Shown here in pieces: positions 6,396 to 23,120 of a stretch of 23,120 nt of DNA. The first letter of the stretch is position 1. Each line of letters starts with the position of its first letter. Under the pieces are notes generated by a model. It did not search any database. It saw nothing but the letters and a program-made list of their open reading frames with translations, and was not told where the DNA came from. Position numbers and translations under genes: made by a program. The stretch comes from an uncultured Clostridia bacterium (GTDB taxonomy: Bacteria; Bacillota; Clostridia; Christensenellales; Aristaeellaceae). The stretch spans positions 1 through 23,120 of the forward strand of contig CALCTW010000114.1 of assembly GCA_937907055.1 (NCBI GenBank), given 5' to 3'.

Positions 6396-6461
6396 ATTGC
6401 TACAATACAGCGCATTCGTGCTGATATTGAATAAAAAGTGAATCAACAGGAGGTTGTTAAT

Positions 6462-6692
6462 ATGTCTACTTACGAACAGGTCGCCCAGATGATCGCAAAG
6501 CAGTTGAGAATCGATGTGAAGGATATCACTCCCGAAAAGAGACTTCTGGAAGATCTCAAGGCTGACAGCGCCAACATCATGGTCATGATCATGGATATGG
6601 AAGATACCTTCGATATGACAGTTGAGGATGAAGCCATCACCTCTCTGCGCACGGTCTCTGACATCGTGAACTACATCGAACAGAATAAGTAA
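6462..6692 (+). CDS. acpP: Acyl carrier protein
   Basis: 76 aa from ATG 6462, with AGGAGG 8 nt upstream. The ORF-track start at 6438 is a GTG with no RBS. The phosphopantetheine-site motif is DLKADSAN. Stop is TAA. Confidence 0.85.
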   Translation: MSTYEQVAQMIAKQLRIDVKDITPEKRLLEDLKADSANIMVMIMDMEDTFDMTVEDEAITSLRTVSDIVNYIEQNK

Positions 6693-6702
6693 GCACCGGG
6701 TC

Positions 6703-6773
6703 CCTCTTTGTGCATGCACAGAGATGGTTCACGGAACAGGTCGCTGCCGGAGAGAACGCCTCTCCGGCAGCGA
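6703..6773 (+). promoter_or_regulatory. Two stem-loops in the acpP-rnc spacer (attenuator or processing site candidate)
   Basis: The first hairpin is 6703-6723 (tctttgtgcatgcacagaga). The second has a perfect 14-bp stem, 6741-6754 pairing with 6760-6773, with loop aacgc. No clear U-tract follows. Confidence 0.4.
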
Positions 6774-6800
6774 TATGTATCGCGAAAAGAGGATAACGGC

Positions 6801-7481: not shown

Positions 7482-10400
7482 AGTTAAAAAAGATCGACAT
7501 TCATGGCTTCAAATCCTTCGCGGATAAAACAGAGATCATTTTTAACGAAGGCATTACAGGCATCGTCGGTCCGAACGGCAGCGGAAAGAGCAATATCGGC
7601 GACGCTGTGCGTTGGGTTCTCGGCGAACAAAGCGCGCGTGTTCTGCGCGGTTCAAAGATGGAGGACATCATCTTCGGCGGAACAGAGAAGCGCAAAGCTG
7701 CCACATATTGCGAAGTTACACTCACGTTTGACAACGAAGATCTGAAGCTTAAGAGCACATTTACGGAAGTCTCCGTTACCAGACGCGTATATCGGAACGG
7801 CGACAGTGAATATTACCTGAATGGCACCGCCTGCCGACTGAGAGACATTCTTGAGCTATTCCGTGATACAGGTATCGGCCGTGAAGGTTACTCCCTGATC
7901 GGTCAGGGACGAATCGACGAGATCCTATCTGTTAAGAGTGAAGACAGACGTCAGATCTTCGAAGAAGCCGCCGGTGTAATGACATTCCGTGTTCGCAAGG
8001 AAGAAGCCGAAAGAAAACTGAACCGCACCGAGGAAAACCTCAGCCGTGTGTCTGATATCTTAGAAGAACTGGGAAATCGTATCGAGCCCCTCTCCAAACA
8101 GGCTGAAACCGCTAAAGAATATCTCAGTCTGTTTGCTGAACTTAAAAGCCTCGAGATCAACATCTACCTTGTTCGCCATGATAAGTTAGAAGAGAAGATC
8201 ACAAGTCTAAAGACTTCTGTTGAGACACTGAATGATATTTTGATCCAGCACGAAGCACTGCTTAATCAGACGACTGAGAATCGTCAGAAGCTGGAAGAAG
8301 CGCTGCAGACCTTGGAAGAAGAGCTGGCACTTTGTCGCAGTGATTATATGGGCGAAACAGAAGCCTATCATAACGCGCAGAGCGAGCTTGAACTCGAAAA
8401 GCAAAAGTTGCATACCGAGATCGAGCGTTTTGACCGCACAAAACAGGAGATCGAGATTGCCGAAGAAAGAAAGAATGAGATCTATTCACTCTTTTCCAAA
8501 GGCAGCACAGCAGAATCAGAAAGCAAAGACGCGCTTGAAAAAGCAGAACAGGAACTGCGTCAGGCTCAGGAAAAGCTGAATGCTTCCGTGGAGGAAGCCG
8601 ATCGTCTTGAAGTCACGCTTGACGAACACAAGAGCGCGATCCTGAATGCTGTAAACCTCCTGAGCGATTTTAAAAATCGTCAGGCCCGCCAGCAGACGAT
8701 GCGCGACCAGATGAAAAAACGTCTGGATGAGATCGAGCAGAGCCAGTCTGAACTGAACAGCAAACAGACAGAATTAGAAATCTCTTTGGAGAACGCGATC
8801 CGTCAAAGCGAGGAAGTCAACAAAAGAACCGAGCAATTCCGGCAGGATGCCGCGAGCGCGGAGGGAAAGCTTCGTCTGGCGATTGAGGATGGCAATAAGG
8901 CGCAGGAGACGATCCATCAACTGAATCTGAAGCTTCAGGCCGACAGAAGCCGTCTCAAGCTCATGGAAGAGATGAGCCGGGAAATGGAAGGTTACAGTCA
9001 AAGTGTTAGAAAAGCTTTGGCTTATGCTGAAAATGATCCTTCTGTCTACGGTGTTGTTGCAAGGCTGATCAAGGTGCCGCGCGAGCTGGAAACGGCGATC
9101 GACATGGCGCTGGGTGCACAGCTTCAGAACATCGTTACAAGAGACGAAGAAGCCGCCAAGCGAATGATCGATCATCTGCGCATCAATAAACTCGGCCGCG
9201 CTACTTTCCTGCCGATGAGCACAGTGCGATCCCGCACGTTATCAAATGAAGAGCGTAAGCTGCTCACTATGCCGGGCTGTATCGGCGTTGCCAGCGATCT
9301 CATCAATTATGATGATAAGTTCCGCGGGATCATCGAAAACCTGCTCGGCAGAACGGTGATCGCAAAAGACCTGAATTCCGGTATTCCCATTATGCGTGCC
9401 GGAAGACATGCTTTCCGCCTTGTTACATTGGAAGGCGATGTCATGTCAAGCGGAGGTTCCATGACAGGCGGTACAACACAGAGCCGCGCTGTAAGCCTCC
9501 TTGGACGTGAACGCGAAAGGGAAGAACTGCAGCATACTGTTGAGAATAATTCCACTCGTCTTGAACAGCTTCGCAAGCAACTGGAACAGTTTCAGGATAA
9601 AGTGGAAAAACTGCAGCACGAATCCGCTCTGGCGAGAGAACAGGTACATCAGGAAGAAATCGCTGTTGCTCGTGAGCAGGAACGCGTATACAATGCCCGT
9701 GCTGAACTGGAAGCGCATAACGAGCGTATCCGTCAGACGAAACTTGCGATCGAGCAATTGACAGACAGTATCGAGGAGATCGATCATGATCTTCGCGAAG
9801 CTGAGGCGGAGACCGGTAAGGTGGCTATCGACCGTGAGGCGATGGATATGAAAACGACATCGCTGCAGGCTGCTTTAAAAGATGCCAGAGAAAAGGTCGA
9901 AAACAGGCGTACGCTCCTTTCTGACGCTCAGCAGAATTATACAGAGATCCGCCATGCCTTGGATGTGCTGCAGCGTGATAAAGAGCGTCAGGACAAAGAA
10001 CTTTCACAGATCGACAGTCAGATCGCCGCTTTGAAGACGCAGTTGGAGAGCAAGGAAACGCAGATCAAAGTTCTTGAAGAAGATATTCTGGAACGAGAAA
10101 GCGATCTCCATTCTCGTGAGTCGATTGTTAATGATAAACGGGAGAAAGTCGACTTGCTCGACAAACAGCGTCTGTCGATGACTCAGGAACAGCGTGAGAG
10201 CGTTGAAAAATCAGAAAATATTCATAAGCAATACGATGAAGATCAGCTGCACCTTCACAAGACTGAATTGAACCTCAGCAAAGCCGAAAGCGAACTGAAA
10301 GTCATGAGTGATCATATCTTCAATGAATATGAACTCACTTATGCTGACTGCGCGGAATTCCGTATTGAAAACTTCGCGCTCACAGAAAGCGAACGAAACG

Positions 10401-11032
10401 CTTCTTCCATTCGCAGCCGTATCCGCGAATTGGGCCCGATCAATGTCTCCGCGATTGAAGACTATGCCAACACAAAGGATCGTTTTGATCAGATGACTGC
10501 GCAGAAGGACGACCTGCTGAAGGCTAAGGACGATCTGCAGAATCTGATCACACGCCTGCTTGGGCAGATGGAACGTCAGTTTGTCGAAGAATTTGACAAG
10601 CTCAAGGTCTTCTTCAGTGAAACATTCACCCGTCTGTTTGGCGGCGGTACCGCAGAGTTGAGACTGACCGATCCGCAGGACGCGCTGAACTGCGGTATCG
10701 AGATCATTGCGCAGCCGCCGGGAAAGAAGCTCCAGCTGCTGTCTCTGCTCTCCGGCGGTGAACGCGCCCTGACCGCGATCGCGATCCTCTTCGCAATGCT
10801 GAAGTTAAAGCCGACTCCGTTCTGTATCCTTGATGAGATCGAAGCTGCTCTCGATGAAGCCAATATCGGTTATTATGCCGATTACATGGCGGAATTCTCA
10901 AAGGGAACACAGTTTGTCGTTGTTACCCATCGTAAGGGTACCATGGAACGCTGCGATTCACTCTTCGGCGTTGCTATGCAGGAGAAAGGCATCAGCCGCA
11001 TGGTGAGCGTTGACTTGAAGGACTACGAATGA
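7478..11032 (+). CDS. smc: Chromosome segregation protein SMC
   Basis: 1184 aa. Walker A is GPNGSGKSN. There are long coiled-coil regions around a central hinge. Signature motif LSGGE and Walker B FCILDEIEAALD are present. Stop is TGA. Confidence 0.95.
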   Translation: MKLKKIDIHGFKSFADKTEIIFNEGITGIVGPNGSGKSNIGDAVRWVLGEQSARVLRGSKMEDIIFGGTEKRKAATYCEVTLTFDNEDLKLKSTFTEVSVTRRVYRNGDSEYYLNGTACRLRDILELFRDTGIGREGYSLIGQGRIDEILSVKSEDRRQIFEEAAGVMTFRVRKEEAERKLNRTEENLSRVSDILEELGNRIEPLSKQAETAKEYLSLFAELKSLEINIYLVRHDKLEEKITSLKTSVETLNDILIQHEALLNQTTENRQKLEEALQTLEEELALCRSDYMGETEAYHNAQSELELEKQKLHTEIERFDRTKQEIEIAEERKNEIYSLFSKGSTAESESKDALEKAEQELRQAQEKLNASVEEADRLEVTLDEHKSAILNAVNLLSDFKNRQARQQTMRDQMKKRLDEIEQSQSELNSKQTELEISLENAIRQSEEVNKRTEQFRQDAASAEGKLRLAIEDGNKAQETIHQLNLKLQADRSRLKLMEEMSREMEGYSQSVRKALAYAENDPSVYGVVARLIKVPRELETAIDMALGAQLQNIVTRDEEAAKRMIDHLRINKLGRATFLPMSTVRSRTLSNEERKLLTMPGCIGVASDLINYDDKFRGIIENLLGRTVIAKDLNSGIPIMRAGRHAFRLVTLEGDVMSSGGSMTGGTTQSRAVSLLGREREREELQHTVENNSTRLEQLRKQLEQFQDKVEKLQHESALAREQVHQEEIAVAREQERVYNARAELEAHNERIRQTKLAIEQLTDSIEEIDHDLREAEAETGKVAIDREAMDMKTTSLQAALKDAREKVENRRTLLSDAQQNYTEIRHALDVLQRDKERQDKELSQIDSQIAALKTQLESKETQIKVLEEDILERESDLHSRESIVNDKREKVDLLDKQRLSMTQEQRESVEKSENIHKQYDEDQLHLHKTELNLSKAESELKVMSDHIFNEYELTYADCAEFRIENFALTESERNASSIRSRIRELGPINVSAIEDYANTKDRFDQMTAQKDDLLKAKDDLQNLITRLLGQMERQFVEEFDKLKVFFSETFTRLFGGGTAELRLTDPQDALNCGIEIIAQPPGKKLQLLSLLSGGERALTAIAILFAMLKLKPTPFCILDEIEAALDEANIGYYADYMAEFSKGTQFVVVTHRKGTMERCDSLFGVAMQEKGISRMVSVDLKDYE

Positions 11033-11069
11033 TAGAATACAGTATGTTTAATGAAAGTGAGGCGAGTTT

Positions 11070-11963
11070 ATGGGTTTCTTCTCAAAATTAAAAGAAAAAC
11101 TGACCAAAACCCGCGGAAATCTGAACGACAAGGTGGACGATCTTGTCGTCAATACGCGAAAGATCGATGATGATTTCTATGACGAGTTGACCGATATCCT
11201 TATTCTTTCCGATATCGGTATGTCTGTCACAGAAGATATTATCGAAAAACTTAAGAAGAGTGTCAAATCCGAACGCGTCAAGAACGCGGAACAGGCCAAA
11301 GAGATGCTGAAGGAACTGCTGATCGATGAGATGACGATCGAAAAGAAAGAACCGAAGTATCCTTCCGTGATCATGGTTGTCGGTGTCAACGGCGTCGGCA
11401 AGACTACCACTATCGGTAAGCTGGCGCTCCGCTTCAAAGAGCAGGGCAAGTCCGTAATGCTGGCCGCGGCTGATACATTCCGTGCTGCCGCTGATGAGCA
11501 GTTGACTGTCTGGAGCGAACGCGCGGCAGTGCCGCTGATCCATGGTGAAGGGACAGATCCCGCTGCCGTCGTTTATGATGGTGTTCAGGCGGCAAAAGCA
11601 CGCGGAACAGATATCCTCATTGTGGATACTGCCGGTCGTTTGCATAACAAAAAGAATCTGATGGATGAGCTGGCGAAGATGCGCCGCATTATCGACCGCG
11701 AGTATCCGCAGGCCGAAATGCGCTGTCTGCTGGTACTGGATGCCACGACCGGTCAGAATGGTTTGCAGCAGGCAAAAGCCTTCAAAGAGTCCACAGATAT
11801 TAACGGTATCATCCTCACAAAGCTGGATGGAACAGCAAAGGGCGGTATTGCGGTCGCGATTCGCCGTGAACTGAACCTGCCTGTTGAGTTCATCGGTGTT
11901 GGCGAAGGCATTGACGATCTGCAGCCCTTCGATCCGAAGGAGTTCATCGAAGCGCTGTTCTGA
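11070..11963 (+). CDS. ftsY: Signal recognition particle receptor FtsY
   Basis: 297 aa. SRP-GTPase motifs GVNGVGKTTT, DTAGR and TKLDG are present. Stop is TGA. Confidence 0.92.
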   Translation: MGFFSKLKEKLTKTRGNLNDKVDDLVVNTRKIDDDFYDELTDILILSDIGMSVTEDIIEKLKKSVKSERVKNAEQAKEMLKELLIDEMTIEKKEPKYPSVIMVVGVNGVGKTTTIGKLALRFKEQGKSVMLAAADTFRAAADEQLTVWSERAAVPLIHGEGTDPAAVVYDGVQAAKARGTDILIVDTAGRLHNKKNLMDELAKMRRIIDREYPQAEMRCLLVLDATTGQNGLQQAKAFKESTDINGIILTKLDGTAKGGIAVAIRRELNLPVEFIGVGEGIDDLQPFDPKEFIEALF

Positions 11964-12010
11964 TCATATCCCCTAAACAACTTATCCATATGTGATCATG
12001 AAGGACAACA

Positions 12011-12055
12011 AAAGAGGATTTGAGACTCCGAAAAGTCTTAAATCCTCTTTTTCGT
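12011..12055. terminator. Bidirectional rho-independent terminator between convergent ftsY and the hydrogenase operon
   Basis: 17-bp stem with one mismatch: 12011-12027 pairs with 12034-12050, loop ccgaaa. It is flanked by an A-run upstream and a T-run downstream. Confidence 0.75.
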
Positions 12056-12112: not shown

Positions 12113-13534
12113 TTATTTCAAGATCGAGATTGCGTCGCAGATCCGTTTTTCAAGTGCTTCCTTACCGTACTTATCAACTTCAGCCTTATTCTTTTCACCG
12201 TGGGTAAGGCATCCGGCACCACCGATACAACCGCCGATACAGGCCATGCCCTCGATGAAGTTCGCCTGCAGTTTTCCGGCTTTCTTCTGAAGAAGCGCGA
12301 TCCTGCACTGTTCAATTCCGTCACAGACAGCGGGTTTCACAACAAACTCAATATTCTGCTCTTTGATCGCTTCGGCAACAGCATCCGACAGACCGCCGCT
12401 TCTCGCAAAGATGCGGCCAAAGTAGGAGGCATTATCTAACGCGGTTTCCTCAAGTTGAGCAATATCGATCTCCCGGCTGTCGATCAGAGCCTGCAGTTCT
12501 TCAAATGTCAATACAGCATCCACATAAGGCTTCACTGTCTCTTTCTGCATTTCCATTTTCTTCGCGATACAGGGACCGATAAACACTGTTTTGCAGTTTG
12601 CATCATGTTCCTTGATGTACTTTGCGATCACAGCCATGGGGGAAAGGTTGTGAGAAACAAAATGCTTCAGATCGGGGAATGTTTTCTCGATATAGCTTAC
12701 AAAAGCCGGGCAGCAGGAGCTTGTCAGGAATCCTTTTTCAGCCAGTTCCCTGGCTTCTTCATTGGAGACCATATCAGCACCCAAGGCAGCTTCGATCACT
12801 GTATGGAAGCCAAGCTGTTTGATTCCGGAAACGACCTGACCAAGCTTTGCGTAAGTAAACTGACTGGAAATAGACGGCGCTACGATCGCATAGACCTTTT
12901 GACTGGGGTTCGAAGTCTGGTCCTTCAGCATGTCGATCACATTCAGGATATAGGATTTCTCGCTGATCGCGCCGAATGGACACGTATATACGCACGCGCC
13001 GCAGGAGATGCAGGTATTATTGTCAATACATGCTTCCTTTTCATCGCCCATTGAGATCGCCTTTACCTTACAGGCCGTTTCACACGGACGCTTGTAATTA
13101 TGGATTGCGCTGTAAGGGCATACCCTTGAGCAGGCGCCACACTCTTTGCATTTTGCCTTATCGATATGCGCAACGTGATTATCATCGAATGTGATCGCGC
13201 CGAAACGGCACGCATCCTCACAGCGGTGAGCGAGACAGCCGCGGCATGCATTTGTGACCTCATATCCGCCCATCGGACATTCGTCGCAGGCAATATCGAT
13301 TACTTCGATCACGTTCGGATTCTGCTTATCGCCGCCCATCGCAAGCTTGACCCGCTCAGCGATGATCGCGCGTTCCTTGTAAACACAGCAACGCATCGAG
13401 GGTTTTTTCCCCGGAACGATAAGCTTTGGAATGTCAAGGAGATTATCCTGCAGAGTATCTGCCCATGCCTGTTTTGACACTTCACGCAGCACTTTATATT
13501 TCAAATGCTGTACTTTGGTATCGAACTTGTGCAT
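12113..13534 (-). CDS. Monomeric [FeFe]-hydrogenase, group B type
   Basis: 473 aa with several ferredoxin-like Cys clusters. H-cluster motifs are TSSCCPAF, GPCIAKKME and EGMACIGGCIGGAGC. RBS is GGAGGAAAT. Stop is TAA. Confidence 0.85.
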   Translation of the reverse strand: MHKFDTKVQHLKYKVLREVSKQAWADTLQDNLLDIPKLIVPGKKPSMRCCVYKERAIIAERVKLAMGGDKQNPNVIEVIDIACDECPMGGYEVTNACRGCLAHRCEDACRFGAITFDDNHVAHIDKAKCKECGACSRVCPYSAIHNYKRPCETACKVKAISMGDEKEACIDNNTCISCGACVYTCPFGAISEKSYILNVIDMLKDQTSNPSQKVYAIVAPSISSQFTYAKLGQVVSGIKQLGFHTVIEAALGADMVSNEEARELAEKGFLTSSCCPAFVSYIEKTFPDLKHFVSHNLSPMAVIAKYIKEHDANCKTVFIGPCIAKKMEMQKETVKPYVDAVLTFEELQALIDSREIDIAQLEETALDNASYFGRIFARSGGLSDAVAEAIKEQNIEFVVKPAVCDGIEQCRIALLQKKAGKLQANFIEGMACIGGCIGGAGCLTHGEKNKAEVDKYGKEALEKRICDAISILK

Positions 13535-13543
13535 ATTTCCTCC

Positions 13544-14716
13544 TTAGAAGTAACTGACCTTGATTCTCTTTCCCATCTTGCGCAGACAGTTTGACAGTTC
13601 TTCAACCAGGGTCATCTTAATGTTGAAAGTGATCGGCAGATCAGGATTCTGATGAGCCGGATTGATCGCGCGGCCTACATAGAAGTTAATATCCGTCGCT
13701 TCGTCGAAAAGCATCCGGCAGATCATCGAAGCGCCATCCTGACCAAACTCCCATTTCTCATGCAGTTTGTTTTCCGTGATAAAATCCTTCGCATACTCAA
13801 CGACCCGGTTAACGGTAATAACACCTTCTGTAACAAGATCAACGCCTTCAATACGGGCAATGGGCGGGACATCGGAACGAACGAACCTCAAATCCGCCTC
13901 CACACGCTTATTTAAGTACCTCGCTGCCACAGAGGCCGTTGTACCGCCGCAGACGATATGTTTGCCTTCCTTCGAGAAGAAAAGGGACATCATGCGATTA
14001 TTATCATCACGCTCCCTTGGCGGACCAAACAGAAGGTTCATCGGTACGCGCTTACGCATCTTGATCACGCATGCTGTCGCGTCATCACCCGGATTATGAC
14101 CGTACAGGTTATCAACTTCCGAGATCAGCATGGAGGACAGCACTTTTGCGGAATAACCGCCCGCATTCGCGGATTCCATGAAGGAAATGATCTCTTCACG
14201 GCGCCAACCGAAATTATAGGCGATGCCGATTCCGGCATGAGGACAGCCATCGCTCATCGCAATAAATGTATCATCTTCCTGCAATCTGATTAAGGAATGA
14301 TAGATCTTTTTGCCGCCGATGTTCAGTTCGGTTTTGGGATACTCATAGTTACGCCCATTCCTCAGCATGATCGTCAGTGGGTTGTCATACTGGATCAGTT
14401 CCATCTCACGGTTCTTTACAAGATTGAGAATCGTGAAGGTAGAATAGGCAACACCGCGAACGGAACAGATCGGCAGAGTCTGCGCGATCGTCTCCACACA
14501 ATCTGTGATAGACAAGCCTTCCGCCATCATTGTAGAAATGATCTTACTGGTCAAGGTGGACAGTATACTGGCTTTTACACCGCTTCCCAGGCCATCCGCA
14601 AGTACAACGATCGTTGAATCATCATCCGGCTGAACAACGTCAACATGATCTCCGCAAAGTTGTTCCCCGGCATGATTGATGCTCTTATAGCCGATCTCGG
14701 CACAGATATCATTCAT
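13544..14716 (-). CDS. PP2C/SpoIIE-family serine phosphatase
   Basis: 390 aa. It has the SpoIIE/PP2C-type motif CGDHV...VLADGLGSGVKAS and a later SDGCPHAG. The start overlaps the hydS stop by 8 nt (ATGAATGA). Stop is TAA. Confidence 0.8.
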   Translation of the reverse strand: MNDICAEIGYKSINHAGEQLCGDHVDVVQPDDDSTIVVLADGLGSGVKASILSTLTSKIISTMMAEGLSITDCVETIAQTLPICSVRGVAYSTFTILNLVKNREMELIQYDNPLTIMLRNGRNYEYPKTELNIGGKKIYHSLIRLQEDDTFIAMSDGCPHAGIGIAYNFGWRREEIISFMESANAGGYSAKVLSSMLISEVDNLYGHNPGDDATACVIKMRKRVPMNLLFGPPRERDDNNRMMSLFFSKEGKHIVCGGTTASVAARYLNKRVEADLRFVRSDVPPIARIEGVDLVTEGVITVNRVVEYAKDFITENKLHEKWEFGQDGASMICRMLFDEATDINFYVGRAINPAHQNPDLPITFNIKMTLVEELSNCLRKMGKRIKVSYF

Positions 14717-16385
14717 TGGAGATGCTCTCCTTCAGCTTTGTCAGTGTGATCTTGGTCTCAGCGGCGGTTTCACCAAGCAGAGAAGCGATCTCCTGCACGA
14801 TACGCATCTGCTTATCCACTACACGGTCTGCTGTCTCGATCGTCTGCGCGCGCTGCTTTTCGCGCTTTTCATGTTCAGTTTCTTCTTCCGTCACATCGCG
14901 CATAAGGCAGAGAAGCATATGATACGTGCTGTCGTACACATAGCTTTCTTCGACGTACTTATCATACTCAGCCAGATAAGTACGGCGATTCTTGATGCCG
15001 CGTTTTGTTTCCAATACTTCTACAAAGGGCTTTGGATCGAGAATACGAACGACCTGATCCCCAAGAACATCGGAAGCATAGCGGATGTTCAGAATCTTCT
15101 GCGCCGCTGGATTGATCTGCTGAACTTCAAGCGCGTCATTGACAACGATGATCGCGTTGGGGGAGTTGGAAACGATGCAATCAGAGAAGCTCTCTGCCTT
15201 ATCCTTCAGGTAGGGCAGACACATGGAGATTTCCGCTTTGCCCTGATAGATCGCGATCGCCTTTTCACGGCAGGTATTGTATCCGCAGGAACCGCAATTC
15301 AGTTCATCTACAGGTCCGATCTTACCCATTTGCTTCAGGATCGCCTTGATCTCCTTATCGGTCGGCATCTTACTGTTACGATCGATCGGCTCAAAACGTT
15401 TCCTGAGATCCATAGAATCAGGCTGGGAAACTTCAAAGTCTTCGTTACCGGCATAAGTAGCTACAGATCGATAGGCAGTAACAGGAGAATTCTTGTACTT
15501 CTCCATTACAGGACCGCCGATACAACTGCCCGTACAGGCTGACATCTCAATAAAGCACTTATGAATGTTGCCCTGTTCGATCTCCTTAAGCGCCGCGATA
15601 CAGTTTTCAACACCATCAACTGCCATATACGTGTAGCCGGGCGCGTTCTGCGACATCGTCTTAAGAACACCGCCGGTCGTGGGGAAGAAGCGCGCACGGC
15701 TCTTTTCTTCAGAATCCATGTCCGGTTCCAGGGTTACATTCTCGGCTTTCAGCCAGTTCGTCAGTTCTTCGTAAGTCAACACAGCATCAACGAGACCGCT
15801 GTACTGCTTTGCTTCATCCTTCTTTGATACACAGGGGCCGATGAAAACGACCTTTGCTTCAGGATGAGCCTTTTTGATCTGCGCGCAATGTGCCTGCATG
15901 GGGGAAAGCACATCCGCCAGACAAGGAACAAGTCCGGGGAAATATTTCTGTACCAGAAGGTTAACAGAATGACAGCAGGTGGAGATCACGATGTCTTCCA
16001 ATCCTTTGGAAAGCATCTTCTCATATTCAGTCTTTACGATCGTAGCGCCGACCGCTGTTTCCTGCACATCCGTGAAGCCAAGTTTTTTCAGAGCCTTCGT
16101 CATCCCATTTATGCCAATACCGCTGTAGTTGGCAATAAAGGAAGGCGCAAGACTTACATAGACCGGAATACCCGACTGAATAAACACTCTTACCTTTTCA
16201 GTCTCGTCAACGATCTGCTTCGCGTTTTGCGGACAGACTACGAAGCATTGACCGCACAGAATACATTCGTCTCCGATAATATGAGCCTGATTCGCGGAAA
16301 AACGAATCGATTTTACCGGACAATGACGAATGCATTTATAACAATTCTTGCAATTGGACTTTTTAAGCGTCATGCATTCCGACAT
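14709..16385 (-). CDS. Sensory-type [FeFe]-hydrogenase homologue with C-terminal PAS domain (HydS/HfsB-like)
   Basis: It has two N-terminal CxxCxxCxxxCP ferredoxin motifs. The H-domain motifs are variant: STCCHS, GPCVSKKDE and EMSACTGSCIGGP. An extra CGSCGYNTC...C motif follows, then a PAS-like segment. I prefer start ATG 16383-16385 (GGGGGA lies 6 nt upstream). ATG 16371-16373 (ATGA overlap) is the alternative. Stop is TGA. Confidence 0.8.
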   Translation of the reverse strand: MSECMTLKKSNCKNCYKCIRHCPVKSIRFSANQAHIIGDECILCGQCFVVCPQNAKQIVDETEKVRVFIQSGIPVYVSLAPSFIANYSGIGINGMTKALKKLGFTDVQETAVGATIVKTEYEKMLSKGLEDIVISTCCHSVNLLVQKYFPGLVPCLADVLSPMQAHCAQIKKAHPEAKVVFIGPCVSKKDEAKQYSGLVDAVLTYEELTNWLKAENVTLEPDMDSEEKSRARFFPTTGGVLKTMSQNAPGYTYMAVDGVENCIAALKEIEQGNIHKCFIEMSACTGSCIGGPVMEKYKNSPVTAYRSVATYAGNEDFEVSQPDSMDLRKRFEPIDRNSKMPTDKEIKAILKQMGKIGPVDELNCGSCGYNTCREKAIAIYQGKAEISMCLPYLKDKAESFSDCIVSNSPNAIIVVNDALEVQQINPAAQKILNIRYASDVLGDQVVRILDPKPFVEVLETKRGIKNRRTYLAEYDKYVEESYVYDSTYHMLLCLMRDVTEEETEHEKREKQRAQTIETADRVVDKQMRIVQEIASLLGETAAETKITLTKLKESISNE

Positions 16386-16654
16386 ACCCAATCCCCCTTT
16401 GCTTTTTCGATCGCAGGTATGATCGTTTTATCCCAGAATTCACTGAACCCTTCAGGCGTAATCCCGGTGTAAGTATCACGGCCGACGATCAGTGTAACAC
16501 CGAGGCGGTTGCACTGACCGGTGCAGAACGCGCCGGTCAGTACCACCTCGTCACTCAGATGATTCTGGTTGATTTTTTCCTGAATCAATTCCACGATTCT
16601 TTCGGAACCCTTCAGGTGGCAGGAGCTGCCCACACAAATCTCAATGCACAGCAT
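16370..16654 (-). CDS. Thioredoxin-like [2Fe-2S] ferredoxin domain protein (94 aa)
   Basis: The Cys pattern C-x4-C ... C-x3-C (CVGSSCH ... FCTGQCN) is typical of NuoE/HydC-type 2Fe-2S domains. Stop is TGA. Confidence 0.7.
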   Translation of the reverse strand: MLCIEICVGSSCHLKGSERIVELIQEKINQNHLSDEVVLTGAFCTGQCNRLGVTLIVGRDTYTGITPEGFSEFWDKTIIPAIEKAKGDWVCRNA

Positions 16655-16656
16655 AC

Positions 16657-16896
16657 TTAAACCCTTGCCTTAATCTCTTTATTGAAAAAGTCGCGAACTG
16701 TTTCGGGAGTAACGGAATAGAGCTGATCATCAACAGTCACGCAGACCCCCAACTGGCATTTTCCCATGCAGAAGGTACCGCCAAGCTCCACCTTGTCATT
16801 CAGTCCGGCTTCGTCAAGCAGATACTGAAGCCCTTCCACGACCTGACGGGAGCCCTTGATATGGCAGGAAGATCCGATACATACGGTCACTTTCAT
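16657..16896 (-). CDS. Thioredoxin-like [2Fe-2S] ferredoxin domain protein (79 aa), paralogue of 16370..16654
   Basis: CIGSSCH ... FCMGKCQ. I prefer ATG 16894-16896 (MKVTV...). The ORF-track start at 16911 is a GTG overlapping the upstream stop. Stop is TAA. Confidence 0.7.
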   Translation of the reverse strand: MKVTVCIGSSCHIKGSRQVVEGLQYLLDEAGLNDKVELGGTFCMGKCQLGVCVTVDDQLYSVTPETVRDFFNKEIKARV

Positions 16897-16907
16897 TTTT
16901 TTTTTCC

Positions 16908-17657
16908 TCACTCGTACTCGACAACATTTACCCAGCTGGTCAGGAATTCACGTTCTTTCTCATTGCCCTTTACAGACTGAGAAGCCGCGACGATCGGCAT
17001 CCACTTCTGGATATAACGCTTCTCCGTACCGCTCTTCTTGCAGAAGAGATTCAGATATTCTTCCGCCATGTCGATCTCGCCATTCAGCCAGAACAGCAGA
17101 TAGGTGCGGGCTACGTCAGCAGAAGCGTTACCCTGCGTAGCATGAGACCAATCCAGAATGTAAGGGACACCGTCATCGGAAATGATGATGTTGGATGGGT
17201 TGAAATCTCCGTGGCAAAGCTTGTTGTGCTTCGGCATACTGTCAAGACGTGTATGAAGTTCATAGCGGGTCGTGATATCAAAGCTCGTCTGAGAGATCTT
17301 GCGCTGCATCTTGTCCTTCAGTTTGGTCAGCATGGGGCAGGTCTTTGATTGTACCTCGATCTGCAGATCAACAAACAGATTCAGATATTCATCCTTTTTA
17401 TCAGGATTCTCCTGCATCAGCTGAGCAAGTGTCTTGCCCTTGATATAATCCGCAACAATCGACCACTTGCCGTCAATCAGCGTTACCTGGTGGATCTTCG
17501 GAATAGAAAGACCGGTTTCTTCTACACGCGCCTGGTTCAGCGCTTCATTCAGAACTTCCGCCTTGGAGTAGAAATCGTCAAAAACCTTCATGGTAAAATT
17601 GCCATCACGGTAGATCGTCTTATGATTTCTGACTGCAATAATTCTGTCAAGTTTCAT
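16908..17657 (-). CDS. APH/choline-kinase-fold protein kinase-like protein
   Basis: 249 aa. Catalytic-loop motif is HGDFNPSNIII, followed by ILDW (the DxD-type metal site). AGGAGGAAAA RBS. It starts 12 nt after the adhE stop. Stop is TGA. Confidence 0.7.
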   Translation of the reverse strand: MKLDRIIAVRNHKTIYRDGNFTMKVFDDFYSKAEVLNEALNQARVEETGLSIPKIHQVTLIDGKWSIVADYIKGKTLAQLMQENPDKKDEYLNLFVDLQIEVQSKTCPMLTKLKDKMQRKISQTSFDITTRYELHTRLDSMPKHNKLCHGDFNPSNIIISDDGVPYILDWSHATQGNASADVARTYLLFWLNGEIDMAEEYLNLFCKKSGTEKRYIQKWMPIVAASQSVKGNEKEREFLTSWVNVVEYE

Positions 17658-17669
17658 GGCTTTTCCTCC

Positions 17670-20384
17670 TTACGCTTTGGCCATACCGTTCTTGGAACGA
17701 TTGTAGGCTGTCTTGAAGTTATGCACATTATCAGTCTGTGCAAGATCGGACTCAGAAGGCATTTCGGGTTCTACGAAGTGCTTTCCGTAGTAAGCGTTCA
17801 GATACATCTGACGGATCTCGCTCATCAGGGGATAACGGGGGTTCGCGCCGGTGCACTGATCATCAAAGGCCTGCTCAACCATATCATCCAAACGGGCAAG
17901 GAAATCCGCCTCATCGGGGACATAATCACGGATCGTGGCCTTGATTCCAACCTTGACCTTCAGGTCATTGACGGCATTGATCAGATTCTCCAGTTTTTCT
18001 TCGTCAGTGTTGCCGCCGAGCGCAAGCGCATCAGCCACTTCAGCGTAACGGGCAAGCGTATGAGGATGATCATACTGAGAGAAAGTGCCCATCTTGACAG
18101 GCGCTTCAGCAGCATTGAAGCGGAGAACTTCTTCCAGCATCAGCGCATTGGCCACGCCATGGGGGATGTGATGGAAGGCACCCAGCTTATGCGCCATGGA
18201 ATGGCACACACCCAGGAAGGCATTGGCGAAAGCCATACCGGCGATCGTAGCGGCATTTGCCATCTTCTCTCTGGCTTCAACGTCCACCAAGCCATTGTCG
18301 TAAGCGCGGGGCAGATACTTGAAGATCGTCTGAAGCGCCTGCTTGGCAAGTCCATCGGTATAGTCGGTCGCCATCACAGAAGCATAAGCTTCGAGCGCGT
18401 GGGAAACAGCGTCGATACCGGAAGCAGCCGTCAGTCCGCGGGGAGCACTCATATGATAATCCGTATCAATGATCGCCATATTGGGCAGAAGCTCATAATC
18501 AGCCAGAGGATACTTGATACCGCTATCCTGATCGGTGATGACCGCGAAAGGAGTCACTTCAGAACCGGTACCGGCAGAAGTGGGGATCGCGATGAAATAC
18601 GCCTTGATACCCATCTTCGGGAAAGTGTAGACCCTCTTGCGGATATCAATGAAACGCATCGCCATATCCATGAAATCGACATCGGGATGCTCATACATCA
18701 CCCACATGATCTTGGCAGCGTCCATGGCAGAACCGCCGCCGAGCGCGATGATGGTATCCGGATTGAAGGAACGCATCAGCTCCGCGCCCGCTTTCGCGCA
18801 GGCCAGTGTGGGATCGGGAGCAACGTCGGAGAAGGTCTCATGAACAATGCCCATCGCATCGAGCTTTTCTTCGATCGGTCTGGTATAGCCGTTATTGTAA
18901 AGGAAGGTATCAGTCACGATGAAAGCGCGCTTTTTGCCCATCACATTCTTCAGTTCATCCAGCGCTACAGGCAGGCAGCCCTTCTTGATGTAGATCTTTT
19001 CGGGAGCACGGAACCAGAGCATATTCTCCCTCCTTTCAGCAACAGTCTTGATATTGATCAGGTGCTTGACACCAACATTCTCGGAAACGGAGTTTCCGCC
19101 CCAGGAACCGCAGCCAAGCGTGAGAGAGGGGGGAAGTTTAAAGTTATACAGGTCACCGATACCACCGTGAGAAGAAGGCGTATTGACAAGAATACGGCAA
19201 GTCTTCATACGCGCAGCAAACTCATTCAAAACAGGCTGCGCGACTTTCTCATTCAGATAGATCGAGGAAGTGTGACCATAACCGCCGTCTGCCACAAGCT
19301 GCTCTGCCTTTGCAAAAGCATCCTGCATATCTTCAGCCTTGTACATGGCAAGAACAGGGGAGAGCTTTTCGTGAGCAAATTCTTCCGTCAGTTCTACGCT
19401 CTCAACTTCACCGATGATGATCTTGGTACCGGCAGGCACCTTTACACCGGCAAGTTCCGCGATCTTCGCGGCAGACTGTCCAACGATCTTCGCGTTCAGA
19501 GCGCCGTTGATCAGGATGGTCTTGCGCACCTTTTCGGTTTCTTCAGCGTTCAGGAAATAGCATCCTCTTGCGGCAAATTCAGACTTCACAGCGTCATAAA
19601 CATTCTTATGGACGATGACAGACTGTTCGGAAGCACAGATCATACCGTTATCAAAGGTCTTTGAATGGATGATGGAATTGACAGCCAAAATGATATCAGC
19701 GGTCTCATCGATGATCGCGGGGGTATTACCGGCGCCAACGCCCAGCGCGGGCTTACCGGAGGAATACGCCGCCTTTACCATGCCGGGGCCGCCGGTCGCG
19801 AGGATGATGTCCGCTTCCTTCATTACAAGGTTGGTCATATCCAGAGAGGGGATATCAATCCACTCAATGATCCCTTCGGGAGCACCGGCCTTCACAGCAG
19901 CTTCAAGTACAATCTTTGCTGCAGCAATCGTGGAATTCTTTGCTCTCGGATGGGGGCTGATGATGATCGCGTTACGGGTCTTCAGCGCGATCAGGGTCTT
20001 AAAAATCGCGGTGGAGGTGGGGTTGGTCGTAGGAATGACCGCGGCGATAACACCGATGGGCTCAGCGATTTTTTTAATACCAAAAGCTTTGTCTTCTTCG
20101 ATCACACCACAAGTCAGCGTATTCTTATACGCATTATAGATATATTCGGCTGCGTAATTGTTCTTGATTACCTTGTCCTCAACGATACCCATGCCGGTTT
20201 CCTGCACTGCCATCTTGGCAAGCGGAATACGCGCCTGATTAGCAGCGATCGCCGCGGCCTTGAAAATGCGGTCGACCTGCTCCTGTGTATAGGTCGCAAA
20301 CACCTTTTGTGCTTTTCTGACGCGTTCGATCGCCGCTTCAAGGGCTTCCACGCTGTCAATGATCTGTCTTTCCTTCGTTTCCAT
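17670..20384 (-). CDS. adhE: Bifunctional acetaldehyde-CoA/alcohol dehydrogenase
   Basis: 904 aa with an N-terminal ALDH domain and a C-terminal Fe-ADH domain (GGGSAMDAAK). AGGAGGA RBS. It starts 19 nt after the rex stop. Stop is TAA. Confidence 0.95.
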   Translation of the reverse strand: METKERQIIDSVEALEAAIERVRKAQKVFATYTQEQVDRIFKAAAIAANQARIPLAKMAVQETGMGIVEDKVIKNNYAAEYIYNAYKNTLTCGVIEEDKAFGIKKIAEPIGVIAAVIPTTNPTSTAIFKTLIALKTRNAIIISPHPRAKNSTIAAAKIVLEAAVKAGAPEGIIEWIDIPSLDMTNLVMKEADIILATGGPGMVKAAYSSGKPALGVGAGNTPAIIDETADIILAVNSIIHSKTFDNGMICASEQSVIVHKNVYDAVKSEFAARGCYFLNAEETEKVRKTILINGALNAKIVGQSAAKIAELAGVKVPAGTKIIIGEVESVELTEEFAHEKLSPVLAMYKAEDMQDAFAKAEQLVADGGYGHTSSIYLNEKVAQPVLNEFAARMKTCRILVNTPSSHGGIGDLYNFKLPPSLTLGCGSWGGNSVSENVGVKHLINIKTVAERRENMLWFRAPEKIYIKKGCLPVALDELKNVMGKKRAFIVTDTFLYNNGYTRPIEEKLDAMGIVHETFSDVAPDPTLACAKAGAELMRSFNPDTIIALGGGSAMDAAKIMWVMYEHPDVDFMDMAMRFIDIRKRVYTFPKMGIKAYFIAIPTSAGTGSEVTPFAVITDQDSGIKYPLADYELLPNMAIIDTDYHMSAPRGLTAASGIDAVSHALEAYASVMATDYTDGLAKQALQTIFKYLPRAYDNGLVDVEAREKMANAATIAGMAFANAFLGVCHSMAHKLGAFHHIPHGVANALMLEEVLRFNAAEAPVKMGTFSQYDHPHTLARYAEVADALALGGNTDEEKLENLINAVNDLKVKVGIKATIRDYVPDEADFLARLDDMVEQAFDDQCTGANPRYPLMSEIRQMYLNAYYGKHFVEPEMPSESDLAQTDNVHNFKTAYNRSKNGMAKA

Positions 20385-20403
20385 AGGATCCTCCTTATAC
20401 TGA

Positions 20404-21000
20404 TTATGATTGAGTCAGCCTGTTTTGAAGATGCGCGAGAGACAATGCCAGGTTCTCATATTGAACGGTGACATTGTCAGGCACGCGTAAATGGGAAGAG
20501 GAGAAGCACCATATTGCTCTGATTCCCGATCGTACCATCTCCTGTGCCGCGTGATCCGCTACATCAGGAGGGACGGCCAGAATACCAAGCTCGATTTGAT
20601 GGAGTGAGCAGAAAGACTGCAATTCACTCATAGGAAGAATGCTGCTGTTCCATTTTTCAGGATCAGTATCAAAGGCTTTGACAACACTCACACCGTATTC
20701 ATTGAATCCGGGAAAACCGAGCAGTGCCATTCCAAGCTTACCGGCGCCGACGATGATGGCTTCCCGCGGTTTATTGCCGGACAGGATCGCTTCCATACAT
20801 TCTATCAGTGCAATAACCGGATATCCCACTTTGGGTTTACCGCTGCCGCAAACAGAAGCCAGATCTTTTCTTACCTGTACTTCGCCGAGGTTCAGATCCT
20901 TCGCGATCGTGGTTGCGGAGATCTCTGTATGTGTAGATGAAAGACCGCGAAGAAATTTCAGATAAACCGGCAGTCTTCCAAGCGTTGCCTTTGAGATCAC
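20404..21000 (-). CDS. rex: Redox-sensing transcriptional repressor Rex
   Basis: 198 aa with an N-terminal winged-helix region (LGRLPVYLKFL) and a Rossmann motif IVGAGKLGMAL. GTG start, with AGGAGG 8 nt upstream. Stop is TAA. Confidence 0.85.
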   Translation of the reverse strand: MISKATLGRLPVYLKFLRGLSSTHTEISATTIAKDLNLGEVQVRKDLASVCGSGKPKVGYPVIALIECMEAILSGNKPREAIIVGAGKLGMALLGFPGFNEYGVSVVKAFDTDPEKWNSSILPMSELQSFCSLHQIELGILAVPPDVADHAAQEMVRSGIRAIWCFSSSHLRVPDNVTVQYENLALSLAHLQNRLTQS

Positions 21001-21027
21001 AAAGCATACCTCCTTTCCACAATTAGC

Positions 21028-21036
21028 ATTATATCA
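21028..21036 (-). promoter_or_regulatory. Extended -10 element (TGaTATAAT), candidate promoter of the rex-adhE-hyd operon
   Basis: The minus strand reads TGATATAAT about 28 nt upstream of the rex start. No good -35 lies at 17 nt; a TTGCAA sits only 10 nt away. Confidence 0.4.
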
Positions 21037-21070
21037 TATCCATTTGCAATAGGGAATGGTTGTTTCGACA

Positions 21071-21093
21071 TATCGATATTGTGATTATCGATA
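21071..21093. repeat. Two copies of the 8-bp palindrome TATCGATA separated by 7 nt (candidate operator)
   Basis: TATCGATA occurs at 21071-21078 and 21086-21093, with spacer ttgtgat. The site lies between the LysR terminator and the rex promoter. Confidence 0.45.
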
Positions 21094-21103: not shown

Positions 21104-21134
21104 TAATAAATACCCACCCGGAGCACGGGTGGGT
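21104..21134 (-). terminator. Rho-independent terminator downstream of the LysR gene
   Basis: The 9-bp GC stem acccacccg (21112-21120) pairs with cgggtgggt (21126-21134). On the minus strand it is followed by TATTTATT. Confidence 0.65.
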
Positions 21135-21208: not shown

Positions 21209-21394
21209 TTAAAATAACTCTCTTTTTACACGGCAAAGCTCCGTGATAAATGCTTTGTCCAGATCTGACAGCATATAGTCTGCCTTATGGACGATCACAT
21301 CTTTATAGATTTTTTTGTTCTCCTTGCATTTACGATGAACAAGCCCATACCGCTACAGAACATCCGGCGGGCATACGGAGACCCACATAAATGT
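21209..21394 (-). pseudogene. In-frame continuation of the LysR gene beyond its first TAG, containing a second TAG at 21353-21355 and ending at TAA 21209-21211
   Basis: Same frame as 21395..22129. Translation: TFMWVSVCPPDVL-TAG-RYGLVHRKCKENKKIYKDVIVHKADYMLSDLDKAFITELCRVKRELF-TAA. It restores a normal LysR length of 306 codons. Confidence 0.6.
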
Positions 21395-22129
21395 CTATGG
21401 ATTCTTTGCCAGCATTTCAAACTGAATTGAACGTTCAAATATAAAGATCTGTTTTTCGACTTCAGGAAGCTCCTCCTTCTTGATTTCCGCCAGCGGAAGG
21501 GAAGGAACATAGGGGTTCGCATGCACAATCTCGATCTTATCGCTAAGGTCAGAATAATGGATCTCCGGCAGTTCCGCAAGAGGTGACTTTTCGTTCACGA
21601 GCAGTACATACTGAAACTCGTTCAGTAATTCATAAGCAAGCCCCTTGCTATCCAGCCATTCTTTGTAATACTTGTCGTATTGCGCCGCGTAGCGGATGAT
21701 ACCCAGTTTATAATCAGACTCTAAAATATTTCGGATCGTATGAACCGAGTTTGTTTCCTTGTAGGTCAGTTCATAACCTCCGTCCTTCGGAAGCTTTGTA
21801 ACGAAAGAAGAAAAAGCTTCACTGATATAACTGGCGAGAGGCACGGAGATAGAGAATTTCTTCTTTTCGGAATAATCCTTCCGGAACATATTTTCCACAG
21901 CATCGACCTGTTTAAGGATCTTTTCCGCATATTTCAAAAATTCTGCGCCTTCCGGTGTAGGCTTCATCCCGCGCGTGGAACGCGTGAAGATACTGACCCC
22001 CAGTGAGGCCTCGAGATCCTTGATGCATCGGCTGAGATTTGGCTGATCCATATATAGCTTTTCTGCAGCCTTGTTGATCGATCCATTCGCGGCGACCGCT
22101 AAAGCATATCGGAGATAAAGCAGGTTCAT
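21395..22129 (-). CDS. LysR-family transcriptional regulator. It is 244 aa as read under code 11 and ends at a TAG, so it appears truncated.
   Basis: Start is ATG 22127-22129 (MNLLYLRYALAV...) with AGGAGGA 7 nt upstream. The N-terminal HTH is SINKAAEKLYMDQPNLSRCIKDLE. The ORF-track start at 22183 has no RBS. Confidence 0.8.
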   Translation of the reverse strand: MNLLYLRYALAVAANGSINKAAEKLYMDQPNLSRCIKDLEASLGVSIFTRSTRGMKPTPEGAEFLKYAEKILKQVDAVENMFRKDYSEKKKFSISVPLASYISEAFSSFVTKLPKDGGYELTYKETNSVHTIRNILESDYKLGIIRYAAQYDKYYKEWLDSKGLAYELLNEFQYVLLVNEKSPLAELPEIHYSDLSDKIEIVHANPYVPSLPLAEIKKEELPEVEKQIFIFERSIQFEMLAKNP

Positions 22130-22364: not shown

Positions 22365-23120
22365 TCAGGCCTTGCCGGCGCAACCAAGGACGTTCAGGAT
22401 CTTATGGGCAACCATGTCCTTCACGGCCTGACGGGCGGGCTTCAGGTACTGACGGGGATCGAAGTGATCGGGATGCTCGGCGAAGTACTTACGGATGCTG
22501 GCGGTCATAGCCAGACGGATGTCGCTGTCGATGTTGATCTTGCAGACAGCCAGTTTCGCGGCCTGAGCCAGCTGATCCTCGGGGATACCGATAGCGCCGG
22601 GCATATTGCCGCCATACTGGTTGATCTCGGCAACAAACTGCTGAGGAACAGAAGAAGCACCGTGCAGAACGATGGGGAAGCCGGGCAGCTGCTTGGAGCA
22701 TTCTTCGAGAACGTCAAAGCGAAGCTGAGGCTTGGTGCCGGGCTTGAACTTGTAAGCGCCGTGGCTGGTGCCGATCGCGATCGCCAGAGAGTCGCAGCCG
22801 GTACGGGTAGCGAAATCAACGACCTCTTCGGGATGGGTGTAAGCAGCCTTGTCAGCTTCGACAGACACTTCGTCTTCAACACCGGCCAGGGTGCCCAGTT
22901 CGGCTTCAACAACAACGCCATGATCGTGAGCATACTCAACGACCTTGCGGGTCAGGGCGATGTTCTCTTCATAGGGCTTGGAGGAAGCGTCGATCATGAC
23001 GGAGGTGAAGCCGCCGTCGATGCAGCTCTTGCACAGCTCGAAGCTGTCGCCATGGTCCAGGTGCAGGGCGATCGGGATATTGTTCTCGATGGCAGCAGCC
23101 TCCACCAGCTTCACCAGATA
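22365..23120 (-). CDS. fba: Class II fructose-1,6-bisphosphate aldolase, C-terminal ~251 codons (the 5' end lies outside the window)
   Basis: The frame is open to the right edge (YLVKLVEAAA...). Motifs are LHLDHG, IGTSHGAYKF and VLHGASS. Codon usage is strongly biased. Stop is TGA. Confidence 0.88.
   Translation of the reverse strand, partial: YLVKLVEAAAIENNIPIALHLDHGDSFELCKSCIDGGFTSVMIDASSKPYEENIALTRKVVEYAHDHGVVVEAELGTLAGVEDEVSVEADKAAYTHPEEVVDFATRTGCDSLAIAIGTSHGAYKFKPGTKPQLRFDVLEECSKQLPGFPIVLHGASSVPQQFVAEINQYGGNMPGAIGIPEDQLAQAAKLAVCKINIDSDIRLAMTASIRKYFAEHPDHFDPRQYLKPARQAVKDMVAHKILNVLGCAGKA

Follow-up and report, generated by a model that had tools for sequence, protein, structure and literature searches.

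The 23,120-nucleotide stretch of DNA analysed here (the window; positions 1 to 23,120 of contig CALCTW010000114.1, assembly GCA_937907055.1, from an uncultured Clostridia bacterium of the Aristaeellaceae) carries eight tightly packed minus-strand genes: rex, adhE, a kinase gene, two ferredoxin genes (fdx1 and fdx2), hydS for a putative H2-sensing [FeFe] hydrogenase, a PP2C phosphatase gene and the gene of a second [FeFe] hydrogenase. On gene content, order and protein identity, this locus is the chromosomal orthologue of the cluster in Ruminococcus albus 7, and an ordinary, widespread member of an already-known system. Taken as a whole, the best explanation, which we hold with considerable confidence, is that of an R. 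albus-type orthologue organised as one operon, in which HydS would sense H2 and Rex would contribute to a feedback circuit. The initial annotation, made from the sequence alone, had read the locus as placing two electron sinks under the same control as a sensor of NADH and a putative sensor of H2, and this reading fits both the sequence and the published work on the orthologue; its implication that the presence of adhE on the transcript goes beyond R. albus falls away, since the order there is identical, adhE included (pRUMAL01; PMC6776011). It had also overlooked a conserved upstream gene, for a LysR-type regulator, which is disrupted in this lineage.

The R. albus locus was found by a tblastn search of HydS against PLSDB, where it matches plasmid pRUMAL01 with 68.6% identity over 99% of the protein. 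The eight genes on that plasmid (RUMAL_RS17350-17385), together with an upstream gene for a LysR-type regulator, have the same order and orientation as in the window, and the nine proteins are 51-79% identical between the two loci (LysR 53-54%, Rex 51%, AdhE 74%, kinase 69%, ferredoxin 1 78%, ferredoxin 2 53%, HydS 69%, PP2C 74%, hydrogenase 74%). The R. albus cluster was reportedly first described by Zheng et al. in 2014 (J Bacteriol 196:3840). Summaries of the original description are found in passages of three later papers (PMC5707799, PMC10838669, PMC11837493). Greening et al. (2019) speak of an 'eight-gene cluster' that is 'co-transcribed' and that includes a bifunctional alcohol/aldehyde dehydrogenase, and they proposed an H2-sensing feedback loop (PMC6776011). 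In co-culture with the H2 consumer Wolinella, the cluster is 111-fold down (PMC6776011; PMC10838669): at the H2 level lowered by the partner it is off, and ethanol formation stops.

The domains of the eight open reading frames were assigned with Pfam and NCBIfam profiles, which, with the coordinates (Table 1), bear out the identities and the order given in the initial annotation; its figures for gaps (2-19 nt) and overlaps (8 and 16 nt) are likewise reproduced exactly. In the direction of transcription, the junctions measure 19 nt between rex and adhE, 12 nt between adhE and the kinase gene, -4 nt between the kinase gene and fdx1, 2 nt between fdx1 and fdx2, -16 nt between fdx2 and hydS, -8 nt between hydS and PP2C, and 9 nt between PP2C and the hydrogenase gene. 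The true start of fdx1 is likely the ATG at 16896, giving a protein of 79 aa (it is called at this length in the related assembly L083), and with this start the kinase-fdx1 junction becomes a gap of 11 nt. A scan based on RNAfold for hairpins followed by a U-tract, along the minus strand from 21300 to 11950, finds no convincing internal terminator, as the initial annotation had claimed, and returns just the two hairpins at the boundaries. The one at the 3' end of the operon has an 18-bp stem (dG -22.7 kcal/mol, z = -4.98) with UUUUGUUG after it; the one upstream of the operon promoter has a 9-bp GC-rich stem, ACCCACCCG/CGGGTGGGT, followed by AUUUAUUAAU (dG -18 kcal/mol, z = -2.9). Inside the operon the scan gives a single candidate hairpin, at 13982, which is weak and of irregular shape (dG -11.3), and two further candidates from a consensus scan (18087-18102 and 18849-18864) were discarded, their folding energies being those of shuffled sequences (z about -1). 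Neither promoter-like nor terminator-like sites in the consensus scan rise above shuffled sequence (promoter-like: 10 against 13.2 expected), and scans of the window for Rfam families and tRNAs give zero matches, so that no known riboswitch or leader was found. The predicted promoter consists of a weak hexamer at the -35 position, ATTCCC (21052-21057), an 18-nt spacer and an extended -10 element, TGATATAAT (21028-21036). Since the same order and the tight junctions recur in dozens of species, the packing is not due to chance; by this layout, the eight genes are predicted to form a single transcription unit, with a predicted promoter upstream of rex and a terminator after the last gene.

Table 1. 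Features of the hydS operon and its upstream region in the window.
Feature	Position	Strand	Remarks
lysR, LysR-type regulator gene	21209-22129	minus	HTH_1 PF00126 1.5e-19; immediately upstream of the operon
Intrinsic-terminator-like hairpin closing the lysR unit	21112-21134	minus	just upstream of the operon promoter
Candidate operator, 19-bp dyad TCGATAATCACAATATCGA	21073-21091		perfect 9+9 inverted repeat
Predicted sigma-70-type promoter	21028-21057	minus	read from sequence
rex	20404-21000	minus	GTG start; ribosome-binding site AAGGAGG 21009-21015; first operon gene
adhE	17670-20384	minus	bifunctional acetaldehyde-CoA/alcohol dehydrogenase; NADH-consuming ethanol sink
APH/choline-kinase-fold phosphotransferase	16908-17657	minus	PF01636
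fdx1, thioredoxin-like [2Fe-2S] ferredoxin	16657-16911	minus	PF01257
fdx2, thioredoxin-like [2Fe-2S] ferredoxin	16370-16654	minus	PF01257
hydS, putative H2-sensing [FeFe] hydrogenase	14709-16385	minus	ATG start; 558 aa; agrees with database gene call P0001
PP2C, SpoIIE/PP2C-type Ser/Thr phosphatase	13544-14716	minus	PF07228
Monomeric [FeFe] hydrogenase (HydA2-type; H2-evolving sink)	12113-13534	minus	TIGR04105
Bidirectional intrinsic terminator, 3' end of operon	12010-12051	both	between the convergent hydrogenase and ftsY genes

HydS comprises two N-terminal Fer4 domains, a catalytic domain (Fe_hyd_lg_C, 2.8e-48), an FeS domain with four cysteines (PF04060, residues 364-393, 1.1e-10) and a PAS domain, whose profile match is marginal (PF00989, 23.2 bits against a cutoff of 22.6); the regions of the four cysteines and of the PAS domain are kept in relatives down to 53% overall identity. 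In an alignment to hydrogenases of the PDB, the motifs of the H-cluster (STCCHS, GPCVSKKDE and EMSACTGSC) retain the cluster-ligating cysteines, and the positions of M353 and M497 of CpI are occupied by Gly and Ser; the characterised sensory enzyme TmHydS likewise has Gly and Ser there (PMC10055695). In these respects, the sequence of HydS resembles that of sensory [FeFe] hydrogenases with low turnover, although it still has Cys at the position of C299 of CpI. The closest PDB sequence to HydS is a bifurcating HydA (E = 1e-20), no near relative having been solved. The hydrogenase database HydDB calls group C3 'phosphatase-linked' and group B 'colonic-type' (PMC5037454), and to judge from their sequences both labels fit, C3 for HydS and B for the hydrogenase encoded at the end of the operon.

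The last ~45 residues of HydS (about 512-558; window 14709-14850; DKQMRIVQEIASLLGETAAETKI.LTKLKE) hardly vary, and this holds even for the homologue from Monoglobus, which is 53% identical overall. This stretch looks like a Ser/Thr-rich conserved helix, and could be a site of interaction or of phosphorylation.

The phosphatase has its PP2C domain at the N-terminus (PF07228, 1.7e-13), followed by ~170 C-terminal residues (13544-14050, residues ~225-390) that are conserved but have no sequence match in Pfam or the PDB; a search of PDB sequences with the whole phosphatase matched the PP2C domain alone, and that weakly. An AlphaFold2 model of the phosphatase, computed from a shallow alignment of 45 sequences with 80-84% identity to the query, has a mean pLDDT (predicted local distance difference test) of 60.6, and its C-terminal domain, mostly below 50, is too uncertain to classify. 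A canonical partner-switching module of the SpoIIE/RsbU type was considered for the PP2C phosphatase and rejected, since STAS and GHKL domains are absent from all eight proteins and the fold of the kinase is that of APH. The kinase (APH PF01636, 3e-12) has a HGDFNPSN catalytic loop, of the form HGDxxxxN, and an ILDW metal-binding motif; papers on R. albus call this phosphotransferase a 'Ser/Thr kinase', but that it acts as a protein kinase is an assumption. Both ferredoxins match PF01257 (fdx1 4.9e-9, fdx2 3.1e-7) and have the Cx4C...Cx3C motif.

Both electron sinks are identified by NCBIfam profiles. AdhE matches the NF010378 equivalog with 1383 bits, and the second hydrogenase matches TIGR04105 (FeFe_hydrog_B1) with 577.8 bits (cutoff 450) over residues 4-445, with the motifs TSSCCP, GPCIAKKME and EGMACIGGC intact; by its NCBIfam classification, it is a monomeric, ferredoxin-dependent hydrogenase of group B. 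HydA2 of R. albus scores 577.4 bits on the same profile. The labels in use do not agree: HydA2 of R. albus (L001, 11847-13283) and its orthologue in the window (12113-13534) are of group B1 by TIGR04105, well above the cutoff, whereas Greening et al. (2019) put R. albus HydA2 in group A1 (PMC6776011).

Relatives of this system are abundant. Protein searches return at least 8000 scored relatives each for HydS and for PP2C, of which the top 120 for either protein are 78-100% identical and stem from metagenomes of gut and rumen. When species-representative genomes were scanned, at least 510 relatives were confirmed. The best 80 of these at species level (HydS at least 69% identical) were compared by tblastn with the nine window proteins over 10-kb flanks, upstream genes being counted in the 48 loci whose upstream sequence reaches 6.2 kb or more and downstream genes in 67. 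The initial annotation had proposed such a survey of gene neighbourhoods, and the arrangement does recur: rex-adhE-kinase-fdx-fdx precedes hydS in 24 of the 48 loci (20 of the 24 also have lysR), and PP2C and the hydrogenase gene follow it in 67 of 67. The upstream part varies: 13 of the 48 loci have adhE-kinase-fdx-fdx without rex and 11 have no adhE; in the more distant Monoglobus, the locus is reduced to fdx-hydS-PP2C-hydrogenase. Exactly the same 8-nt overlap of hydS and PP2C is seen in 75 of 76 loci, whereas the length of every other junction varies, and so constant an overlap speaks for the two proteins being necessarily made together. Across the loci compared, the invariant core is thus ferredoxin, HydS, PP2C and hydrogenase with a fixed HydS/PP2C overlap, and by this overlap hydS and PP2C are predicted to be translationally coupled.

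The region upstream of the operon was aligned over 330 nt from the first gene in 47 loci, 30 of which start with rex and 17 with adhE. They share a layout: first a terminator, then a dyad in one to three copies that overlap, and after it a -35 hexamer resembling AATTCCC, an 18-nt spacer and a good -10 element; the core elements of the window promoter have like counterparts in related loci, with AATTCCC or ATTTAC, 18 nt, and then TATAAT, TATACT or TAGAAT. The dyad, which in the window is the 19-bp inverted repeat of Table 1, has the consensus TCGATAA-N5-TTATCGA (more loosely, TCGATA-N7-TA(T/C)CGA) and has its centre ~61 nt upstream of where transcription is predicted to start. It also occurs at 4281-4299 of L001 and in about 25 other loci, often in two or three overlapping copies with 15-bp spacing. 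It is strongly concentrated in promoters: of 40 matches in 1.36 Mb, 32 lie within the 15.8 kb of promoter regions, an enrichment of ~170-fold. Two matches away from promoters, one upstream of a U32 peptidase gene (L075) and one inside the hydrogenase gene (L011), look like chance occurrences.

Two types of promoter can be told apart by what they contain. The dyad is present in 23 of the 30 rex-first operons against 2 of the 17 adhE-first ones (Fisher p = 3.6e-5), whereas the canonical Rex box (TTGTTAA-N4-TTAACAA, at least 12 of 14 positions), found in 18 of the 47 promoters, occurs in 6 of the 30 rex-first operons against 12 of the 17 adhE-first ones (Fisher p = 0.0013); in the examples examined, it covers the -10 region. 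The best match to the canonical box in the window promoter has 9 of 14 positions, and a lone Rex-operator match elsewhere in the window (5210-5227) is at chance level. The dyad half-site TCGATAA and the Rex half-site TTGTTAA are alike in 5 of 7 positions.

Rex itself is well supported, by the NF003994 equivalog (211 bits, cutoff 130) and by the Pfam domains for the N-terminal winged helix (PF06971, 2e-13) and the Rossmann NAD(H)-binding domain (PF02629, 4.4e-13), with an intact GAGKLG motif; its closest solved structure is chain 3wg9 (E = 9e-27). It departs from solved Rex proteins in the wing, which reads VCGSGKPKVGY in the window as opposed to (Y/N)FGxxGxxGxGY. The rex genes of L001-L082 share this feature: the wing of the operon Rex subfamily is QVRKDLxx(V/I)(S/C)GxG(K/R)P(K/R)(I/V)GY, with the core V(S/C)GxG(K/R)PK(I/V)GY. 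This wing may entail an altered DNA specificity, and the operon's own Rex probably recognises the non-canonical 19-bp dyad in the window, rather than the canonical Rex box. The dyad could instead bind the LysR-type regulator, since its position at -61 would suit an activator such as LysR equally well; however, it is present in three loci without an adjacent lysR (L010, L014 and L079), and is mostly missing from lysR-adhE operons without rex.

These considerations can be extended into a more specific proposal, which we regard as unlikely: that the rex of the operon is a specialised paralogue and not the housekeeping Rex, that it acts from its own operator near -61 as an NADH-responsive activator or anti-repressor, that it is the output of the phospho-signal of HydS, PP2C and the kinase, and that operons without rex are controlled by the chromosomal Rex through a canonical box over the -10 region. 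If true, this would identify the DNA-binding step in which the long-sought route from H2 sensing ends.

The gene for the LysR-type regulator, which a single-frame alignment of 307 aa relates to the LysR of R. albus (WP_013483405) with 53-54% identity, has its reading frame broken by two TAG codons, one at 21395-21397 and one at 21353-21355. Both are CAG (Gln) in a 94%-related assembly, L085, in which the gene is intact; the first is common to the independent assemblies L083 and L084 (HydS 98% identical), and the second is found in the window alone. The window gene is likely a recent pseudogene, or one that gives a truncated product of 244 aa, and this lineage is most likely in the course of losing the regulator, to judge from these codons; LysR homologues are otherwise present upstream in 39 of the 48 loci with enough context. 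Recoding of TAG was considered, as Gln stands opposite both codons in the alignment and TAG ends not one of the window's 17 large genes, and was rejected. TAG makes up just 8.5% of the stop codons in related loci, so that its absence among 17 genes is within chance (a probability of ~22%); in-frame TAG codons are absent from all other genes, CAG to TAG is the commonest nonsense transition, and the second TAG is private to the window.

In the mechanism that we propose, H2 would accumulate and bind to HydS at the H-cluster, and the C-terminal cluster, the PAS domain and the terminal helix of HydS would then alter the activity of a bound PP2C phosphatase, which would oppose the APH-fold kinase on a phospho-target; candidates for this target are the conserved C-terminal helix of HydS (SLLGETAAET), the C-terminal domain of PP2C, Rex and AdhE. 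In parallel, the operon's Rex would read the rising NADH/NAD+ ratio, and the signal from HydS, PP2C and the kinase would, together with Rex, induce the operon. The induced AdhE would re-oxidise NADH, with the formation of ethanol, and the hydrogenase, which would use ferredoxin only, would re-oxidise reduced ferredoxin. Since rex, hydS and the genes of kinase and phosphatase would all be part of the very transcript under their control, the circuit would feed back on itself. We consider this mechanism the most likely one; what is shown of it is the gene architecture here and the expression physiology in R. albus, and its phospho-target and DNA-binding endpoint are inferred.

Several points weigh against this circuit. 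[quoted passage not shown] The PDB sequences nearest to the kinase are small-molecule kinases (for choline, hygromycin and macrolides). A canonical Rex operator (TTGTTAA-N4-TTAACAA or TTGTGAA-N6-TTCACAA) is not found near the operon with up to three mismatches; the dyad, which lies upstream of the -35 element, is in the position of an activator site, not of a repressor site; and the surveyed loci are related by descent, so that the counts of association do not represent independent events. Given the nonsense mutations in lysR, regulation here may differ from that in R. albus. Finally, the initial annotation had remarked that the route from H2 sensing to regulation is not understood, and papers of 2025-2026 agree, still calling the mechanism that links hfs/HydS to ethanol production unknown (PMC11837493; PMC13277313).

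The invariant overlap of hydS and PP2C and the two ever-accompanying ferredoxins suggest a stoichiometric complex, and the alternative that survives best, possible though on the unlikely side, takes the ferredoxins, HydS, PP2C, the kinase and the HydA2-type hydrogenase as a post-translationally controlled enzyme complex. Phosphorylation would then directly tune the activity of the hydrogenase or AdhE, or the routing of electrons, transcription would be governed by NADH alone through Rex or another regulator, and HydS would be a regulatory or catalytic subunit and not a transcriptional sensor. Greening et al. do term the phosphatase a 'subunit' (PMC6776011), HfsABC of the thermophile hfs system may be a functional hydrogenase without HfsD (PMC13277313), and Rex alone among the eight proteins has a DNA-binding domain by Pfam and NCBIfam. 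In Thermoanaerobacterium saccharolyticum, deletion of hfsB raises NADH-dependent alcohol dehydrogenase activity without a matching rise in aldehyde dehydrogenase activity, from which the authors hint at post-transcriptional regulation (PMC5707799). Transcript levels weigh against this alternative: those of the R. albus cluster shift ~100-fold with H2 (PMC6776011), and deletion of hfsA or hfsB shifts adhE mRNA 2-3-fold (PMC5707799). The residue substitutions that HydS shares with low-activity sensory enzymes also speak for a sensor.

A second alternative, which appears quite improbable, is that H2 is sensed indirectly: it would inhibit a bifurcating hydrogenase, NADH would rise and Rex alone would derepress the operon, while HydS would be a second hydrogenase of low activity and the kinase and phosphatase would have an unrelated role. 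Rex is indeed the established sensor of NADH/NAD+ that controls adhE in Clostridia and Thermoanaerobacter (background in PMC5707799), the canonical Rex boxes in 18 of the 47 promoters are near-perfect, and the proton-relay Cys is retained in HydS. The canonical box is, however, lacking in the window and in R. albus; the PAS domain, the C-terminal 4-Cys cluster and the coupling to PP2C are kept in every locus, even in those without rex or adhE; and the regulatory phenotype of the hfsB deletion is unlike that of a deletion of the whole operon (PMC5707799). A division of the genes into two or more adjacent transcription units (for example rex-adhE and kinase-to-hydrogenase) with promoters inside coding sequence is very improbable: although kinase-fdx-fdx-hydS-PP2C-hydrogenase and fdx-hydS-PP2C-hydrogenase stand alone in nature, as separable modules, and a 10/12 sigma-70-like match lies on the minus strand at 17650-17622, this match is inside the kinase reading frame and of a kind found less often than in shuffled sequence, the genes, with junctions between -16 and +19 nt, have no space between them, no internal terminators were found, and the orthologous genes of R. 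albus form one co-regulated block of eight (PMC6776011). The single H2- and Rex-responsive operon outlined above is thus the reading that we retain.

The surroundings of the operon are those of a chromosome. It lies between ftsY-smc-rnc-acpP-plsX on one side and fba on the other, and since these genes of the flanks (1-11963 and 22365-23114) are housekeeping genes, the location of the cluster is chromosomal here. The housekeeping genes of the flanks also include two adjoining class-I tRNA synthetases of the Glu/Gln type (1356-4517), and the window has a 252-aa open reading frame on the minus strand (146-904) without a Pfam match at E <= 1e-5.

The system sets how a fermenting gut or rumen bacterium disposes of its electrons, as H2 and acetate or as ethanol, a choice that underlies interspecies hydrogen transfer, methane output and the ethanol yield of engineered strains. 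The window adds no new architecture to it, the genes, the hypothesis and the key expression experiment having already been published for cultured R. albus 7. Its comparison with relatives supplies context instead: uncultured gut Clostridia carry the cluster very commonly, with thousands of near-identical metagenomic proteins, and the two flavours of promoter, with canonical Rex box or alternative dyad, track the absence or presence of rex in the operon, a lead worth an experiment.

Among the known systems, the cluster of R. albus 7 is by far the most similar. Beyond the order of its genes, it has the same 8-nt overlap of hydS and PP2C and the same dyad upstream of rex (TCGATAAAGATAATATCGA), and its promoter, like that of the window, is without a canonical Rex box. 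The differences are in setting and detail: the R. albus cluster resides on a 420-kb megaplasmid, whereas that of the window is chromosomal; lysR is intact in R. albus and nonsense-mutated in the window; and the junctions of the window are slightly tighter, with two additional overlaps. The hfsABCD operon of T. saccharolyticum and T. thermosaccharolyticum, in which hfsB encodes a PAS-containing homologue of HydS, hfsC a homologue of serine phosphatases and hfsD a HydA2-like, ferredoxin-linked hydrogenase (PMC5707799; PMC11837493), corresponds by its published description to the core block of ferredoxin, HydS, PP2C and hydrogenase, which stands alone in Monoglobus too; it is without rex, adhE and the kinase gene, adhE being located elsewhere on the chromosome. 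In five thermophiles, both the expression of adhE and the yield of ethanol go up when hfsB is deleted (PMC5707799). Sensory [FeFe] hydrogenases share the domain plan of the window HydS, with N-terminal [4Fe-4S] clusters, an H-domain, four C-terminal cysteines and, in group C, a PAS domain; TmHydS differs in having Ala at the position of C299 of CpI, where the window HydS has Cys. The same logic is seen in HoxBC-HoxJ-HoxA of Ralstonia eutropha, in which a low-activity hydrogenase is the cytoplasmic H2 sensor that acts through a phospho-relay on hydrogenase genes (PMC6978683), but with other parts and to another end: a [NiFe] enzyme, a histidine kinase and a response regulator serve aerobic oxidation of H2 there, where the window has an [FeFe] enzyme, an APH-fold kinase and a PP2C phosphatase for the disposal of reducing equivalents in fermentation.

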